DNA from: Promethearchaeota archaeon
GTDB lineage: Archaea > Asgardarchaeota > Lokiarchaeia > Sigyniarchaeales > SOKP01
Length of the DNA: 64,000 nucleotides
Reading direction: 5' to 3'
Assembly: GCA_030599585.1 (NCBI GenBank)
Contig: JAUVNS010000006.1
Location: forward strand, 224,001 to 288,000
Below are positions 49,104-59,931 of the stretch, one piece after another; position 1 is the first letter of the stretch, and each line of letters begins with the position of its first letter. The translations under genes were made by a program, and so were the position numbers. The notes beneath the pieces are model-generated. The model worked only from the letters and a program-made list of their open reading frames with translations, had not been told where the DNA came from and made no database searches.

Positions 49104-50297
49104 TTGAACATGACAAATCAAAAATTACCCGAAATTGATATGCTTCGCATTATATCGATTCTAATCGTTGTATTTTTAATTCATATTCCACTTAGCTATG
49201 CTTATTATTTCTACCTTGACTTAGATCAATTTAGCGTGTTTTTAGTTAATAATGTTGGAATATATGTCTCCATGGGCTCTTTCGCGTTTGTCTCTGGATT
49301 CGGTCTATATTTAAGTCCCAACAATAGAAGGATTAATTCAGTCAAGAAATTAACTACTTTCCTAAAGAAGAGATTTATAAGAGTATTTCCACTCTATTGG
49401 ATTGCGATTATTTTATTTCTTTTTTTTGTAGGATATTCGACCATTAACCCGCTTTATTTACTGTTCCATTTTTTAGGAATGCAAATCATAGTTGCTCCCA
49501 ATTTTGGACCTCCAATGCTAACCATATGGTTTATAGGCATAATTGTGATATACTACCTGATTTATGTTGTCCTAAATTCATTAGGTTCAATCAAACGAAT
49601 CATTCCGGCATCTGTCGCCATTCTATTCTTATTTGTGTTTCTTAAAGGCTTTTTTGGGCTGGTTGAATATCGATTTTTCTTATACTATTTTATATTCATT
49701 GCAGGCATAGTTGCTGCTCATATCTACACCTCCCCCCTTTACAATCGATTTAAAGAACGTTTGAGAGAAGTACCTCGAGTAGTCTTACTCCTCGTTCCAT
49801 TATGTACTGCCATTTTAGGTTTAATAACATTTCAATTTTTAACTCAGTTTACCTATTCTACTTTCGTTTCGGAATACGGAAATTATAACCTATACTTAAT
49901 ATTAGAAACAAATCCTGATTTTTTTCAATTAGCAGGGATAATATTTTTGATAAACCTAATAATAATAGCATTCATAATTTTTGCAATTTCATCGCTCAAT
50001 TTTATATTTCGCACCTTTAGATTGATTTTCTCTAAAAGAAAAATTGAATCGATAGTTTCAGTAATCGCTTATTCCACTTTCGGCGTATATCTCTTTCACA
50101 GAGTCTTTCTTGGTATCTTTACCTTCTTAATGACCAATGAATTAAATATAGACATGCGTGAACTGGACAACTACTACTTAGTCTTAATTTTTGTCCCGTT
50201 TATATTTCTATTCTCATACTTAATTCAAAAGGCTTTTGATTGGGTTTGGAAGAGAGCTTCTAAGCACAATGCTAATAATGATCTTCAAACCGTGTAG
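49104..50297 (+). CDS. Acyltransferase family 3 membrane protein
   Basis: IDMLR..I..V...H, F..VSGF, KKRFIRVFPLYW, WFI, YSTFGVYLFH. Confidence 0.92.
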   Translation: MNMTNQKLPEIDMLRIISILIVVFLIHIPLSYAYYFYLDLDQFSVFLVNNVGIYVSMGSFAFVSGFGLYLSPNNRRINSVKKLTTFLKKRFIRVFPLYWIAIILFLFFVGYSTINPLYLLFHFLGMQIIVAPNFGPPMLTIWFIGIIVIYYLIYVVLNSLGSIKRIIPASVAILFLFVFLKGFFGLVEYRFFLYYFIFIAGIVAAHIYTSPLYNRFKERLREVPRVVLLLVPLCTAILGLITFQFLTQFTYSTFVSEYGNYNLYLILETNPDFFQLAGIIFLINLIIIAFIIFAISSLNFIFRTFRLIFSKRKIESIVSVIAYSTFGVYLFHRVFLGIFTFLMTNELNIDMRELDNYYLVLIFVPFIFLFSYLIQKAFDWVWKRASKHNANNDLQTV

Positions 50298-52900: not shown

Positions 52901-52936
52901 AAGAAAATAAAAAAAAATAAGAAAATAAAAAAAAAT
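52901..52936 (-). terminator. Duplicated oligo-U terminator downstream of the ncRNA array
   Basis: Perfect 18-nt tandem repeat AAGAAAATAAAAAAAAAT x2 on the + strand, giving two U9 tracts on the minus transcript directly after the last unit. Confidence 0.6.
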
Positions 52937-52937
52937 C

Positions 52938-53150
52938 ATATCCCTGCTAACAATTCTCACATTTGGTTGCGACACTTCAGCGAAGGGTAGCGCCAGACTA
53001 GAAATACCTTTTAGGTCATTCACCGAAGGTTCCATGTCAAATGGGCTAAAATGTATCAGCGAACCGAAGTGAGTTGCGCGCAAACTGGTGATGTATGATA
53101 AGCAATTCTTCAACCACGGCGCAACACCGTAGCATTAAAGCCAAGGATAT
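52938..53150 (-). ncRNA. Retron msr-msd-like ncRNA, distal unit (C)
   Basis: Terminal pairing AUAUCCUUG/CAGGGAUAU; hairpin GCUACGGUG-UUG-CGCCGUGGU; variable hairpin 53004-53056; homologous to the two other units. Confidence 0.8.
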
Positions 53151-53240
53151 TTTTATTGATTACTGATATTGAACGCCTTTACTTATGAATTTATTTATTT
53201 TTTTTTTTATATTCCAATCGCAATTAGAAAAATAGTCGTG

Positions 53241-53426
53241 ATCCCTGCTAACAATTCAAACATTTGGTTGTGACACTTCAGCAGAACGTAGTTAGTGGTA
53301 CATTGAACCGAAGGATACATGTTTAAGGTACCACTACCGTAGTGACGCGAATAGCGCGCAACCTGGTGGTGTATGATGGGCAAAATCTCAACTGTGGCGC
53401 AACACCACAGCATTAAAGCCAAGGAT
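53241..53426 (-). ncRNA. Retron msr-msd-like ncRNA, middle unit (B)
   Basis: Terminal pairing AUCCUUG/CAGGGAU; hairpin GCUGUGGUG-UUG-CGCCACAGU; variable stem TAGTGGTAC/GTACCACTA (53293-53336). Confidence 0.8.
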
Positions 53427-53463
53427 TCTAACTTTAAAATTTTCTTCTTTATTGCCATAAATA

Positions 53464-53683
53464 TTTTAGCGATTATAACCTCTCTGCTAACAATTCTCAC
53501 ATTGGGTTGTGACACTTCAGCAAAGTGGAGAACATGTGCTTCTTAACCGAAGGATACATATAACGAAGCACATGTACATGAAGCGGCGCGAATTGCGCAC
53601 AACCTGGTGTCGTATGATTAGTAATTCCTCAACTACGGCGCAACGCCGGAGCATGAAAGCCAGAGACTATTATAATCCTAAAA
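53464..53683 (-). ncRNA. Retron msr-msd-like ncRNA, RT-proximal unit (A)
   Basis: Terminal pairing UCUCUG/CAGAGA, extended by GATTATAA/TTATAATC and TTTTAG/CTAAAA; hairpin CGGCG-UUG-CGCCG; variable stem ACATGTGCTTC/GAAGCACATGT (53532-53575). Confidence 0.8.
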
Positions 53684-53728: not shown

Positions 53729-55193
53729 TTATTTTATAATCTTATTCGCTTCATTTATTAATTTTTGATATCTTTCAGAGTTTACACTTCTAACCCAAGA
53801 TGTCATTCCTGCTATCTCATTTTTTTTTTCCTTTGGTATTTCTTTACTTGTTTTTAACAGGATATTAGCATTATGAATTGCTGCTCTATAATTTTTAATC
53901 CATTTACGTGGTAGTCCTAGTTCCGAATTATTTAAAATGATTCCCGTAATTTTTTGTTGATTATTCTTTCTCAAGAAACGAGTTTTGGAATTGTTTATTT
54001 CAAAACCCTCTTCCTTTGTAATTTTATAAATCAGACCGCAGAATCTTCCTAAATTCACTTCCTTTTGGTCTTTCAATGAAAAACTTAAATCGTCAGCATA
54101 TCTCGAATAAGTAAGTCCAAATTTATCTGATAATCCTTTTAATCTTTTATCTAATCTTTGACATATTATATTGGTAATCATAGGGCTTGCAGGTGAACCT
54201 TGTGGTAATATTCTTTTTGTAGTAGCGACATATTTGGTGGTTCCTCTTACTTCAAATTGCCAACCGCTCACAGTAAGTACAGAGCATGGAAAGGAGTGAG
54301 GAAATGTGACCAGAATATCCAAATGAATGAAACATACCCCGAACTCTTTCAAATGTAAGAGTTGGGAAAAAATCTTTTAGGTCCATGTTTAATATTAGAA
54401 AAGGCTGTTTAGGATGAGAGTTAGCTCCAGTTATCACAGACTTACCTTGAATAAATCCATGTGCATATTTTGAGGGAGGAATAATTGATAAAATTTTGTC
54501 AAGAATAATCCTCTGTGAGTTTTTTAATAAAGATTTTGGAGCAGCGATTGACCTCGTCCCTCCAGTTCTTTTAGGAATCTTATATCGATAATAATGATCT
54601 ATGTCTACCACATCTCGGTGATAGGCAAGAAATCTAAGTTGCTTAAAATCGATATCGAGAAATCGATTCAGTTCATGTGCATCCTTTATAGTGGGAAGTT
54701 CGTTTTTCTTTAGCTTTTCTATATCTGTATCAAATCTATAGAGCATTGATGAATAACCCTTCCCAATGAAAACAATTTCTTCTTTTTTTTTCTTTTGCCA
54801 TGCTTCAGATCTTTCTTGTCTTTCTAACTCTTTTTGTCTTTTTCTCTCTTCACGCCGCTTAATTGATTCTAGCCACATTTCCTTAGCGATTTCTTTCCGA
54901 ATCTTATCAATGTCATACGTTCCACCATGTTCTTTCTTAAGATCCATTAGTTTTTTTTTTATTTTGCGTTTACTTGTATACAGCTCCGTAATCTGCGTAA
55001 TTAATTTATCTAAGTTATTCATTAATTTCTGTCTTTTCGTAAAATCCTCATTTGATTCGTTTTCTTGTTGATTATAGGGAGTTGGAAGATTTTTTGGCCA
55101 GAAACCATATTCTTGCATTTTCATAAAGGTAAATTGTTTTTTACCTAGTTGCTGTATTAACCTGCTATAATCACTTTTCGAGCTGTCAGTCAT
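53729..55193 (-). CDS. Retron-type reverse transcriptase (Mx162/type XIII-like), split by a 1-nt frameshift at 54254-54256
   Basis: ORF 54252-55193 has IPKRTGGTRSIAAP, AHGF, GANSH (region X-like) and DLKDFFP. ORF 53729-54352 has LPQGSPASP, YSRYADD and QKITG (region Y VTG-like). Removing one T from GCA ATT T GAA GTA restores a 487-aa frame. Confidence 0.92.
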
Positions 55194-56967
55194 CTACTCT
55201 CATAGCCTCCAATGACGATTCATCGTATCTTCTATTAGGAATAAGTGGTAATTCTAAATATGTAGAAGCATTAATGTATAAAGCTAAAATATGTTTGCAG
55301 GGAGCTGAAATATTTCTTGGACCACGTTTAAATGCTTTGCATCCACAATTAACCTTAACGATTTGTTTATCTTGATCAAGAGTTACCTCGGTATTAAATG
55401 TTTTATCTCGATACTGATATCTTCTACTTGTTGTTTGTGAAGAACTACTCTCAGCGATAGTTTCGAAATTCGCGGTTAATCTTAAATTGAACCTTTTCTC
55501 GGGTTTATTAATCTCATTCAATACATCTCTTTCTAATTGTGTAGTTTCATACAATTCTCTTGGTAATGGGATGTTTAAAAGTTGCCTATAACGGTAAACT
55601 TTACGGTTTAGGTCAAAATATGCCTCTCCTTTTCGAAATAAACTACCAATACTCGCTCTAATCTCTTGATCACTTGCACTTGATAATTCACTTTTAAGAG
55701 TTTCGAGTTCCATAACTCTATTTTTTTTTAATAAATTCCGCACGTTAGGATCTCCCTCTCCAATAAAACCGCCCATGATATTGAATGCTGTTCCTTTAAC
55801 CCAATCGTTAGAAGACCATGAGGTAAATCCAATTGTCATATTTAAGAAGCCTAGATCCGCAACTAAAAAATGAGGCATTCCAAATCCAAATAGTTTTAAT
55901 TTAAAGGATTTTGAGATCGGAATTATCTTTTCAACAATCAACCATCTTCTACGGCCCCAGATTCTCTCTATATGCTTTCTTTTTCCAGTATATATTGTAG
56001 ATAATTCTAATTCCTTTTCCCATGGTTCAAATATTATCTTTACTCGTTTTTTAGGTTCAAAAACCCACTTCATTGCCCTAGGGCTTTTTCTGGCTTTATT
56101 TCGTCTTAAAAATGAACATATATCATATAAATCTACAGGAGTCAGTTCTATTTCAAATCCGTCTAAACTAGCAGCAGCAGATACTTGATTAAAACCCTTT
56201 ATCCACGATTCGGGTAAATCTATTTTCTTTTCCACGTATTCAGGAGTAACCCCTGAATCTACAGTAATTCCTTCAGGATTAATTGACAATTCAACTTCAT
56301 TATACGTTCGAAACCTCTCCATCTCTTTTGCGAGTTTTATAGAGAAATCTACATTAGTAGTCCCTAATTTAGGAGTTCCTTTAATTTCAAACTCATCCAT
56401 TTTCACAGCTAGACATCCATATACTGACTCATCTAAAGAAAATGCTTCAAAGGAAACTTGATCGGGATGAACTGTTATTACAGGATCTAAAACATACCAG
56501 AGAGCCTGATCTCTATTGCGGATATAATGCCAAAATTGGCTCTCAATTTTATTATAATTCTGCCATATTCCCATATCATTAACTTTACTTTTCAAGCTCA
56601 TGATTTTAGAGCGGATTTCTAAGATGTTTTTATCTACATCATCAAGTTGGACTTTTAACGTATCCATATCACCTTGTAATTCCTTCCTCCAAGTTTTTAG
56701 AAAACCTTCTTTATGAATCATCCGTTTTTCAATCTCTTGATTAAACCAGGCAAAAAAATCGCCATAATCTTTTTTCCTAATTCTTGAATCTGATATTACA
56801 ATCTCTCTTAACATTAACATAGCATCTCTAAAAATTAATGGGTGCTTCAATCTTCCTACAAATGATACTTTCTCATCTCTAGTAAGATCGGGACTTAGAC
56901 CGAGAGTTATATAATCCTCAGATTGAAGGCAAACGGATGGACTTGTATACTGATAACTAATTTCCAT
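55186..56967 (-). CDS. SWIM zinc-finger protein (retron-associated, wHTH-SWIM type)
   Basis: C-terminal CGC-x13-CKH SWIM motif; coiled coil followed by LDPVITVHPD..FEAFSLDES.Y. Overlaps the RT start by 8 nt. Confidence 0.85.
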   Translation of the reverse strand: MEISYQYTSPSVCLQSEDYITLGLSPDLTRDEKVSFVGRLKHPLIFRDAMLMLREIVISDSRIRKKDYGDFFAWFNQEIEKRMIHKEGFLKTWRKELQGDMDTLKVQLDDVDKNILEIRSKIMSLKSKVNDMGIWQNYNKIESQFWHYIRNRDQALWYVLDPVITVHPDQVSFEAFSLDESVYGCLAVKMDEFEIKGTPKLGTTNVDFSIKLAKEMERFRTYNEVELSINPEGITVDSGVTPEYVEKKIDLPESWIKGFNQVSAAASLDGFEIELTPVDLYDICSFLRRNKARKSPRAMKWVFEPKKRVKIIFEPWEKELELSTIYTGKRKHIERIWGRRRWLIVEKIIPISKSFKLKLFGFGMPHFLVADLGFLNMTIGFTSWSSNDWVKGTAFNIMGGFIGEGDPNVRNLLKKNRVMELETLKSELSSASDQEIRASIGSLFRKGEAYFDLNRKVYRYRQLLNIPLPRELYETTQLERDVLNEINKPEKRFNLRLTANFETIAESSSSQTTSRRYQYRDKTFNTEVTLDQDKQIVKVNCGCKAFKRGPRNISAPCKHILALYINASTYLELPLIPNRRYDESSLEAMRVDD

Positions 56968-59931
56968 TTATATTACCTCCATTTTTATTTTAGCAAGAGC
57001 GACCAAGGCTCTTTCAGAATCTTTAATTATATTGGATCCTCCGATTTCAAGGAGAATTTCTTCAATAATATCACAGTTTTCTTTATTTCTAAAAACAAAC
57101 TCGGGAATGAGTTGATAAATCTTATCTTTACTTTTGGATTTGAGATTAGGTAAAAATATAAGCGTTTTGATATAATATAAAAAGATTTCACTATTTCCAT
57201 TTCCTAAATCATCTAAAATCCTATCAATCTTTTCCGAGATATATGACTTGATATCATGAGAAGCGTGTTCTAACATTTGGATAATTATGTTTTTAGGTAA
57301 TTTTTCTCCATATATCTCGTCTAACTTGTTTAATGCATAAGTAATTACTTTTTTTTCAGGAGAATCAATAAGAATTGATAACGTTCTATTAAAAGCTTCT
57401 TTAGGTAAACCCTCAAAAACATTAATTGCGATCTCATTAAGGGTGGCTATTTCAGACTCAAACATTAATTGGAGGGTAGTGTACCGCTCCTTTACTTGAT
57501 GAGTATTTCTTCTAACCATCTCTATCAACGTTCTAACCATTTCTGGCGGCCCTATTTCTAATATTTCTAGAATTTCACTATCAGAGGGCAACAATTTTGT
57601 TGAAAGCGCTCTTAGCATATAAAGGATGACCATTGAAGGAATTTTAGCTGAAAAATCAATTTCTATTTCCTTAATAATCATCAGTAAATCATCATAAGCA
57701 ACTGAGAAGATAAGATTCTGCAAATAATCTGAAGTCCATTCCGGAAGTGTGGACTCATGTATCAGTAGATCTATTATTAAATTTAATAATTTAGCGCGTT
57801 CATTCTGTGGTATCTCATTTACTTTGTTGGTTGATTTATTTAACTGATCTAAGATTTCTTCCGGTAATTCAACTTGTTTCTTAAAGAATGAGTAAATCTT
57901 AGCAATTAATGCTTCTACAAATTTAAAATAGTCAATTCCCTTTAATTCTCTTATTCGTTCTATTATAAATTCAAACCAATTCTCTACATTATTAAGTAAA
58001 AGCAAATCTACAACCATCTCAGGAGTGATCTTTCCTTTTGTTCTATCAAAATACGCCCATGCTTGTTCATGCAACGTATTATCAGAACATTCCATAAGAG
58101 CAAACATTAAATTATGATCAAATGTGTCAGCTTTTGTTAGTAAATTTGTTAATTTTTCTCTAAATAGATTTCTTAATCTAACATGCTTTGATAAAGAAAG
58201 TTCTACCATCAGTTTGGGGGGTAATTTTCCTAAAATGTTATCTAGGTCAGAACGAGCATTTATTAAATTAAAGCAGAAATCTAATACGTAATGGACCTCA
58301 CTTTCGGTTGCGATTTCTAAAACATCAGTGAAATATTTGTTCCAGAGTTCTAACTTCTTTTGATAGGTGTCAGCGGCTCTAATAGATTTAAAATCGATAC
58401 TATCAATTCGTGGGGTATCACGATAATAAGAATAATGACGGGATCTAGAGCGGATACGTGGTGCAGTAGTGTAGTATCTTAGAATCTCATTAATACTATC
58501 GGGAATTTGTCGGCCCGAAACTAAATCATAAGGCTTATAATTACTAAAAAAAGTTTTCACTGCTAGAATAAATAAATGCTCATCCCCTCGTGCTAATGAA
58601 TCAAGAGTTCTTCTCACATATCGATGAATATAGTTGTAAAACCCTTGATAACCGCTTGCGAGCATAAAATAGTAGAATTTTGGAGTATCAATGTAGTAAG
58701 CAAGGGTTCCGAGTAGATCAGGAGCTTTGTAGACCTCCGCTTCTTGGATTAGATTCTTAAACATAATGTGATTAAGTCTGAAACCATCACTTATATGGCT
58801 AGGGCTAAATTTTAATGTAGGACCGATTGCTCCCCATTCCTGATCCCCCCACTTTTTTACGTAATCATTATAAGAAGTATTTTTTTCTCGTTTCTCTAAA
58901 TAACGCCCAGCTCTTCCTCTTGGTTTATTACCATGTACAGGGATTAAATCAATTTTAGCAACAATATTTGTAATTTCTTTAATCCTATTTTCTTTTAAAG
59001 TAGAATCAATTGAGTTAAGGTATATTTGAGCACATCTCTTTACACCTTCAGCAAATTTAGGCTCGGACCATCTAAATGTGAAATTAACTATTTTACTTGC
59101 TTCTTCTTTTAAAATGGGATTTTTTATTTTAGCTAACTCTAAGAACAAACCAGATACAACACCCTCACCCCCAATTTCTACTATTTTTTCATATATTGAT
59201 TTTGGAGGTTTTTTTTCAACAAGATTTCTTAGGAATTTCTTTCTATTATAGAGACTTTGATTTGACATCAACTCAACGATTAAGTCTAAAAATACCTCGT
59301 CAGTTTTACTTAATTTTAATATTTCATTAGGATCCTTAGCAACCTTAAATTCTCCATTAAATACATCCCCCCTAATTTTATTTACTTTATCACGATAACT
59401 TAATTCTTTAAAATAAGGGAGAAAGAATTGATTTTCAGGACTCAAATTAATAAAGGAAGCTGCTTCTTTCAACTGTATTTCTCTGTAATATCCATGTCTT
59501 TGACTCTTATATTGTTTATATAAGCCTTTTCGATTTACTAGATACGAACGCCCTTTTACACGGCTTCTAGTACTATAATCATAATGTGATGGAGTGAGTA
59601 ATTTTAAATCTAAAAATGGGGGTAAATGTTCGTGATTTCCTTGAAGAATAGTATATCCAACATAGTTTACGTCCTCACTCAATAAATTATATTCACCAGG
59701 ACTTATTTCTGGCTTTAATTCTTCTTTTAAAGAATCATGATATTTCTCAATATCTTCTTGTGTAATTGTGATTCTACTACCTGAATCAATTTCGTGTGGA
59801 CCAAAAAGTATAGCGAAACTGGGATTCATTTTCTTATCCCAGCCCCAAAGTACTAATTTTCTAGTTGGATTATTTTGTTTTCCCCATCTTCGTCTTATTT
59901 GTTGAACTTTATCTATTACTGAATCATCCAT
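56968..59931 (-). CDS. Large alpha-helical (ARM/HEAT-repeat-like) retron-associated protein
   Basis: Leu-rich helical repeats in the C-terminal half (LMECSDNTLHEQA, LIDSPEKKVITYAL, MLEHASHDIK). Its stop directly abuts the SWIM ATG (TAAATG). Confidence 0.75.
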   Translation of the reverse strand: MDDSVIDKVQQIRRRWGKQNNPTRKLVLWGWDKKMNPSFAILFGPHEIDSGSRITITQEDIEKYHDSLKEELKPEISPGEYNLLSEDVNYVGYTILQGNHEHLPPFLDLKLLTPSHYDYSTRSRVKGRSYLVNRKGLYKQYKSQRHGYYREIQLKEAASFINLSPENQFFLPYFKELSYRDKVNKIRGDVFNGEFKVAKDPNEILKLSKTDEVFLDLIVELMSNQSLYNRKKFLRNLVEKKPPKSIYEKIVEIGGEGVVSGLFLELAKIKNPILKEEASKIVNFTFRWSEPKFAEGVKRCAQIYLNSIDSTLKENRIKEITNIVAKIDLIPVHGNKPRGRAGRYLEKREKNTSYNDYVKKWGDQEWGAIGPTLKFSPSHISDGFRLNHIMFKNLIQEAEVYKAPDLLGTLAYYIDTPKFYYFMLASGYQGFYNYIHRYVRRTLDSLARGDEHLFILAVKTFFSNYKPYDLVSGRQIPDSINEILRYYTTAPRIRSRSRHYSYYRDTPRIDSIDFKSIRAADTYQKKLELWNKYFTDVLEIATESEVHYVLDFCFNLINARSDLDNILGKLPPKLMVELSLSKHVRLRNLFREKLTNLLTKADTFDHNLMFALMECSDNTLHEQAWAYFDRTKGKITPEMVVDLLLLNNVENWFEFIIERIRELKGIDYFKFVEALIAKIYSFFKKQVELPEEILDQLNKSTNKVNEIPQNERAKLLNLIIDLLIHESTLPEWTSDYLQNLIFSVAYDDLLMIIKEIEIDFSAKIPSMVILYMLRALSTKLLPSDSEILEILEIGPPEMVRTLIEMVRRNTHQVKERYTTLQLMFESEIATLNEIAINVFEGLPKEAFNRTLSILIDSPEKKVITYALNKLDEIYGEKLPKNIIIQMLEHASHDIKSYISEKIDRILDDLGNGNSEIFLYYIKTLIFLPNLKSKSKDKIYQLIPEFVFRNKENCDIIEEILLEIGGSNIIKDSERALVALAKIKMEVI

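Follow-up and report, generated by a model that had tools for sequence, protein, structure and literature searches.

The retron operon and its host genome

The window, by which we mean the whole stretch of 64,000 nucleotides analyzed here, carries on its minus strand a tightly packed operon in the order HEAT/WGR-SWIM-RT, with three ncRNA units directly downstream. The first operon gene (56968..59931, minus strand) encodes a helical-repeat protein of 987 aa, which matches the PADLOC profiles WGR_XIII (2e-15) and HEAT-ARM_XIII (5e-6). It is followed by the gene for a SWIM zinc-finger protein of 593 aa, the type XIII partner (55186..56967, minus strand; PADLOC SWIM_XIII, 3e-169; Pfam SWIM, 5e-5), which is present as a single copy in the source genome (G000; GC content, 32.6%). 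The third gene is that of a retron RT (53729..55193, minus strand; PADLOC RT_XIII), which is spread over two ORFs, 54252-55193 and 53729-54352. The two RT halves matched RT_XIII at 5e-82 (profile positions 15-254) and 1e-63 (profile positions 255-424), NCBIfam retron RT families were matched at about 1e-30, and both the YADD and the LPQG motifs were found in the RT; Pfam and NCBIfam concur on the RT and on the SWIM protein. Type XIII retrons have been described as SWIM/DEDE and WGR/HEAT-ARM proteins together with a clade 10 RT (Mestre et al. 2020, PMC7736814), and, judged by its profile matches and gene order, the operon is of this type XIII layout.

The small-subunit rRNA of G000 is archaeal, with RF01959 (1458 bits) scoring highest within its clan. 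The nearest named relative of the RT, with 63% identity, is encoded in a Promethearchaeota MAG (locus L038), and both observations fit an Asgard archaeon. The gene order of the operon is kept at two loci, L086 and L087, where orthologues of the 987-aa protein (36% identical) occupy the equivalent operon position. When we surveyed the genus (42 genomes), an RT at E<=1e-30 was found in G000 alone, and the full match to SWIM_XIII was likewise confined to G000, with one partial match in G022 and marginal matches in G006 (9e-5) and G003 (5e-4).

Three homologous units follow the RT

Unit A begins 62 nt past the RT stop codon, on the same strand as the RT. Units A, B, and C are mutually homologous and measure 186, 186, and 213 nt, respectively, with a variable stem that is longer in unit C than in A and B. 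All three lie on the minus strand and match the covariance model R1, described below.

Unit A (53481..53666; 208 bits) is bounded by the a1 arm UCUCUG at 53666-53661 and the a2 arm CAGAGA at 53486-53481, with the GG at 53661-53660, a candidate branching G at 53660, an opposing G at 53487, hairpin 1 at about 53652-53632, and a predicted msd template at about 53619-53488. Unit B (53241..53426; 191 bits) has a1 AUCCUUG at 53426-53420, GG at 53420-53419, and a2 CAGGGAU at 53247-53241, and here the candidate branching G is 53419, the opposing G is 53248, and the predicted msd template runs from about 53379 to 53249. For unit C (52938..53150; 183 bits), the corresponding parts are a1 AUAUCCUUG at 53150-53142, GG at 53142-53141, a2 CAGGGAUAU at 52946-52938, a candidate branching G at 53141, an opposing G at 52947, and a predicted msd template at about 53101-52948.

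A sequence-only reading of this DNA had described units that start with UG-G-CUUU, end with UUAG-CAG, and pair at their ends, and we found its letters and coordinates to be correct for all three units. It had also held that the G-U pairs of these stems work on the minus strand only, which agrees with our finding that the U.G wobbles in the stems of B and C become C.A on the plus strand and that the RT is co-directional with the units. Past unit C, two U9-containing tracts (52901..52936, minus strand; direct repeat D5 and sequence) are likely the archaeal oligo-T terminator of the array.

Minimum-free-energy folds contained the terminal stem for units B and C, and it was absent from the fold of unit A, whose stem measures 6 bp. 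On the other hand, each single-unit fold, as well as the DNA fold of unit A, contained a long variable msd stem with a constant C(UUCG)G tip. This tetraloop motif is located at 53545-53559, 53306-53320, and 53021-53035 and is shared by almost every unit of the family (direct repeat D3, alignment A4). RNAalifold runs on three or five units returned unstable consensus folds with competing pairings, for example of UGCUGA with UUAGCA, and for this reason we set the helices by hand and counted their pairs. Rfam includes an msr family; no Rfam family matched the window between positions 50000 and 60000 at E<=1.

The terminal stems covary across the family

We built the covariance model R1 and searched 135 genomes of the same family with it, which revealed complete units (>118 bits) in five genomes besides G000. 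The arrays in these relatives hold one to three units. Where the contig permits a check, four arrays are found directly downstream of an orthologous SWIM-RT or HEAT-SWIM-RT block (L038/L055, L084, L086, and L087), and the one unit found at L088 is located about 3.2 kb downstream of the RT.

For the pair counts, we used a structure-blind MAFFT alignment (A4) of 13 RT-adjacent units, which come from six genomes of one family and are thus kin and non-independent. In this alignment the a1/a2 helix was 84% paired, compared to 36-51% when the 3' arm was slid by 1-3 columns. Both sides had changed in 11 of its 13 pairs, and the observed covariation score was matched by none of 500 shuffles. The inner 6 bp were paired in every one of the 78 cells, with compensatory changes at four of the six positions and with inner stems of the types UCUCUG/CAGAGA, UCCUUG/CAGGGA or CAAGGA, UUCUUG/CAAGAA, and UCCCUG/CAGGGA. 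Together, these findings extend the covariation of a1/a2-like stems, first noticed in the window, to 13 units from six genomes, beyond what slid arms or shuffles produce.

The G that follows a1, the C after it, and the AG that precedes a2 were invariant in all 13 units. Hairpin 1 was 92% paired, with four pairs changed on both sides. In addition, a long-range GGUU/AACC helix, which encloses the template region, showed changes on both sides in 4/4 pairs (14 sequences; alignment A3 columns 68-71 with 185-188; GGUU of unit A at 53593-53590). We also observed that this helix competes in part with a local hairpin, GYGCG-N5-CGCGY, whose G.U pairs are available to RNA only.

Many solitary msd copies end beside the position of the opposing G

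When G000 was searched with the array, we found pieces of units A and B elsewhere in the genome at 95-98% identity, without a1, a2, and the GG. Within the genus, 16 of 36 other genomes had solitary msd pieces of this kind, and across the family the figure was 40 of 135, with no retron ncRNA unit detected in most of these 40 genomes. The copies in G000 are L002 (1499-1657, C20), L003 (1501-1609, C34), L004 (1501-1594, C32), L005 (1501-1575, C16), L006 (1383-1429, C39), L007, and L008, and further pieces are located at C9:328264-328503, C30:13355-13394, and C11:179901-179977. In total, 64 distinct copies from 60 independent sites were collected, and we aligned them to a profile built from the 13 complete units.

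The right ends of the copies are concentrated at one base. Seventeen of the 60 end exactly at model position 183, which is the A of UUAG (that is, ...GAAUUGUUA) and immediately precedes the opposing G; if ends were distributed uniformly, so many at a single position would have a probability of about 3e-22. The base that follows these precise ends is a, t, or c, and in 0/17 is it g. Among the 44 copies that reach position 175, 34 end at 179-183, while 5 of the 60 run a few bases beyond 183 and 16 are without that end. Copies with an end at or before 183 are all devoid of a1, the GG, the opposing G, and a2. One copy that runs past 183, L097, possesses the AG together with an arm resembling a2 and could represent a unit in decay.

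Left ends are more variable. One group of them falls at positions 41-59, immediately past hairpin 1 on its 3' side at (GCU)UAUCAUAC, and another at 135-146, where the variable stem has its base; one copy (L004) extends to two bases after the GG. DNA copied from the RNA, starting beside the opposing G, is expected to have one fixed end and graded truncation at the other, and we infer from the positions of these ends that the solitary copies are RT products.

A one-base frameshift in the RT

The RT ORF is broken by one extra T within GCA-ATT-TGA-A near 54252-54262 (region 54244-54279, minus strand). In five relatives, the RT is a single continuous ORF that reads ...CER(V/I)xIEV... across the break point. 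Recent inactivation, a sequencing error in the T-run, or +1 recoding could each account for the break, and with a one-base frameshift in its RT, the locus is possibly silent now.

A stronger version of this view is that the frameshifted RT marks a dead retron and that the units are relics, with stems that were inherited and prime nothing. The extra T in G000, set against the single ORF of all five relatives, is what such a relic would show, and the solitary copies in G000 differ by 2-5% from their source units, so that none of them is demonstrably very recent. However, both RT halves are otherwise intact and give strong profile scores, and units A, B, and C all possess perfect inner stems and the invariant residues. 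Furthermore, the break falls at AUU-UGA-A, a context open to +1 recoding or to a T-run sequencing error. Weighing these points, we regard relic units as a possibility to be kept in mind but an unlikely one.

The predicted priming site and start of the cDNA

According to Simon et al. 2019 (PMC6868368), the priming G of retrons directly follows the msr arm of the stem, and its context is usually TAGC, with CAGC in Mx162 and Sa163 and GAGC in Mx65. The candidate priming G of the archaeal units is found in UGGC, which fits the NNGC motif. In Retron-Eco7, the branching G at the stem end faces an opposing G that stays uncopied (PMC12673091). The Ec86 locus that we fetched reads ...CCCTTA-G-C ... CTGAC-G-TAAGGG..., the same arrangement as UUG-G-C ... 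UUA-G-CAR in the archaeal units. In Ec86, too, we take the opposing G to be uncopied and the DNA to start opposite the C of CUGAC; no Ec86 msd in printed sequence form was found in the literature searched. Since the archaeal units match both the Eco7 description and the Ec86 letters, their geometry, with a branching G that faces an opposing G, is the canonical one.

The sequence-only reading had instead placed one unpaired, bulged G before a CU/AG pair. In all three window units this pair can form, and its C-G half can form in 13/13 units of the family, but its U-A half forms in 5/13 only. The G of UUAG is better read as an opposing G than as a member of a CU/AG mini-helix, and the mini-helix is not needed.

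The bulged G also underlies an alternative view of initiation, in which the helix is continuous and resumes with C-G and U-A beyond the bulge. Here, the G of UUAG would be copied first, the cDNA would begin 5'-CTAACAATTC, and its first C would be lost on debranching or on insertion of the DNA. That C-G is able to form in every unit and U-A in all three window units is compatible with such a helix, and a one-base loss is conceivable, since an exonuclease trims the DNA 5' end in some retrons (PMC8989520; PMC12673091). On the other hand, U-A is broken in 8/13 units, and C-G is without covariation support because it never varies. None of the 17 precisely ending solitary copies retains the G, the opposing G of Eco7 is uncopied (PMC12673091), and Ec86 has a G at the matching place. 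We therefore find a continuous helix with a copied G improbable.

With an opposing G that stays uncopied, the cDNA most likely starts 5'-TAACAATTC, because the solitary copies end ...UUGUUA and never with the next G. The earlier expectation that cDNA starts near CTAACAATTC on the plus strand was thus right as to the region, with the start itself shifted to one base inside. As for the retron reading of the unit ends as a whole, we found it upheld by the a1/a2 pairing, the invariant unpaired G followed by C, the fit to NNGC, and the neighboring RT with its type XIII partners.

Taken together, we consider it highly probable that each unit is a complete msr-msd RNA of a type XIII retron, which a1/a2 would close and on which the RT would prime from the branching G to make a cDNA that starts 5'-TAACAATTC. 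The units would be transcribed with, or just after, the type XIII operon. Pairing of a1 with a2 would then bring two invariant Gs face to face, namely, the second G of UG-G-C as the putative branching G and the G of UUA-G-CA as the opposing G. The RT is predicted to start DNA synthesis at the 2'-OH of the branching G, where both the branch and the choice between the two Gs are inferred. The first base copied would be the A of UUAG, so that the cDNAs would start at 53488, 53249, and 52948 on the plus strand. From there, the RT would pass the variable stem-loop with its C(UUCG)G tip and mostly stop just 3' of hairpin 1, near (GCU)UAUCAUAC. The msd DNA is predicted to measure about 130-155 nt and the msr about 50 nt; hairpin 1 would form the msr, and the GGUU/AACC helix would enclose the template region. 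Against this interpretation of the sequence, we count the RT frameshift, the position of the ncRNA downstream of the RT, the lack of an Rfam match, the silence of R1 in bacterial loci (see below), the short stem of unit A, and the solitary copies that extend past position 183 (5 of 60) or do not have that end (16 of 60).

Comparison with described retrons

The first retron to be discovered was Mx162, which is of type XIII. No function for type XIII was found in the literature searched. The archaeal locus resembles the type XIII retrons Mx162/Retron-Mxa1, Mx65, Sa163, and Ne144 (PMC7736814) in that its RT belongs to the same PADLOC family and has an N-terminal extension, a SWIM/DEDE partner occurs together with a WGR/HEAT-repeat protein, and the ncRNA has terminal inverted repeats and an NNGC priming G. 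Unlike the bacterial type XIII retrons, it has an archaeal host, its 1-3 diverged ncRNA units form an array that follows the RT, and its a1/a2 arms are short (6-13 bp). The downstream position also sets it apart from described retrons in general, where the ncRNA is usually upstream of the RT.

Retron-Eco7 (Ec78) and Retron-Eco1 (Ec86) are alike in the end of the a1/a2 stem, where a branching G followed by C faces an opposing G. They differ in retron type (I-A and II-A) and in having the ncRNA ahead of the RT, and no solitary msd copies of Ec86 were found among 5,426 genomes. Simon et al. 2019 (PMC6868368) report several duplicated msr-msd repeats for Retron-Nex1 (Ne160), a retron of Nannocystis exedens. 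However, the Ne160 repeats have no RT within a kilobase and are taken as duplicated insertions, whereas the archaeal array directly follows its RT. The archaeal units differ from one another mainly in the msd stem, and the Ne160 duplicates provide a partial precedent for them.

We also searched nine bacterial loci (L039-L047) that were chosen by RT similarity alone, and R1 found no match in them. In four of these loci, no repeat-unit arrays were found downstream of the RT. Loci L039-L043 come from Lachnospiraceae and other Clostridia, and their RTs are 51-56% identical to the archaeal RT over the C-terminal part. The ncRNA of these bacterial relatives, if present, would thus be located elsewhere and be unrelated in sequence.

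Both the stems and the priming G belong to the canonical features of retrons, and we therefore view the locus as a new instance of a known mechanism; its departures from described retrons are the archaeal host, the ncRNA after the RT, and the array of diverged units. No direct report of retrons in Asgard archaea, or of a natural genomic insertion of msDNA, was found in the literature searched. With the alignment, the structure of an archaeal (Asgard-type) retron ncRNA is compared across genomes for the first time, its predicted initiation site is defined to the base, and arrays are described in which up to three different msd payloads share one constant scaffold. The scattered msd copies are likewise unreported in the literature searched and are the most interesting lead of this analysis.

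Origin and sites of the solitary copies

Long copies (58 nt or more) at 95-98% identity each match a unit of their own genome, including its variable stem, in G000, G094, and G154. In G000, L003, L004, and L006 match unit A (95-98%), and L002 and L005 match unit B (96-98%); L106 matches a unit of G094 and L092 a unit of G154. In another species, L022 is 87% identical to unit C over 125 nt. Copies in genomes without a detected unit are 70-90% identical to any known unit, except for short pieces of the conserved 3' segment (<~40 nt). Some copies are old, since they occupy orthologous sites in two or three species (L013/L027 and L028/L036/L072).

Two sites in G000 were compared with G002, a close relative that has 84-93% identity in the flanks. 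At the first site (C34; L109 2102-2210), 109 nt of unit A msd replace 3.66 kb of G002 (L115, C119:3000-9300) between the same flanks, and the missing 3.66 kb corresponds to three surface-glycan genes in G002 (Glyphos_transf, NTP transferase, and MFS). In this alignment with the relative, the C34 site is a deletion with filler DNA. At the second site (C20), the copy is found at a synteny breakpoint within a gene that is continuous in G002. No obvious target duplication was found at either site in the comparison with G002.

In eukaryotes, cDNA or organelle DNA can be captured as filler at break-repair junctions, and LINE copies truncated at the 5' end occur. The archaeal copies resemble both in having one fixed end, at the predicted start of reverse transcription, with variable truncation at the other. 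They differ in that the host is a prokaryote without detected Ku and in that the source would be retron msDNA. We did not find Ku (PF02735) in G000, so classical Ku-dependent joining is without support there. In an Ec86 control, the msd was present once per genome in 48 carrier E. coli genomes, with 0 solitary copies among 5,426 genomes.

That the repeats are instead a MITE-like element with terminal inverted repeats, or an independent sRNA family, which came to be beside the RT by chance and whose scattered copies are other insertions, would fit the presence of related sequence in 40/135 family genomes as against full units in only six, and the restriction of the RT and the full SWIM_XIII match to G000 within the genus (42 genomes), but we find it very hard to credit: complete a1/a2 units are found only in the six retron-bearing genomes, with the four checkable arrays directly behind a type XIII RT and one unit about 3.2 kb downstream; copies ending at or before 183 are without the terminal inverted repeats, start after hairpin 1, and stop one base short of the opposing G; one-sided truncation is expected for cDNA and not for cut-and-paste elements; and the two sites that could be compared with a relative show a deletion or a rearrangement junction and lack an obvious target duplication.

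We favor, with some reserve, an origin of the copies in the msDNA of the units, which would have been repeatedly inserted in the host chromosome. Under such an origin, pieces bounded by the start and stop of reverse transcription would have come to rest at deletion or rearrangement junctions in retron-bearing genomes, and older, diverged copies would persist in species without a detected unit. If the copies are cDNA, retron DNA can join the chromosome in nature, and such entry of retron cDNA into a genome would be recorded here for the first time outside the laboratory, with the copies serving as a fossil map, at nucleotide resolution, of where type XIII DNA synthesis starts and stops. If insertion is indeed what occurred, joining by the SWIM/DEDE partner and ordinary break repair are two candidate routes. 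Such joining would be relevant to retron biology, to genome rearrangement in Asgard archaea, and to the application of retrons as DNA donors in cells.

The copy L002 (C20) was considered as an orphan unit because a1/a2-like 7-mers flank it, and we rejected this since the left 7-mer is native, being present in the insert-less relative G002. Two diverged msd-like copies of G000 (about 69% identity), L008 1455-1617 on C12 and C9:328264-328503, contain either an internal tandem duplication of ACUUUACACCACCAGGUUGCGCGUAACUCG or two adjacent partial copies. Lastly, the partial SWIM_XIII match in G022 (2e-25, profile positions 103-200) belongs to a 424-aa ORF (C116:11425-12661; L050/L099) that has a solitary msd copy (model positions 49-127) at a distance of about 1 kb, and this locus may be a decayed retron.
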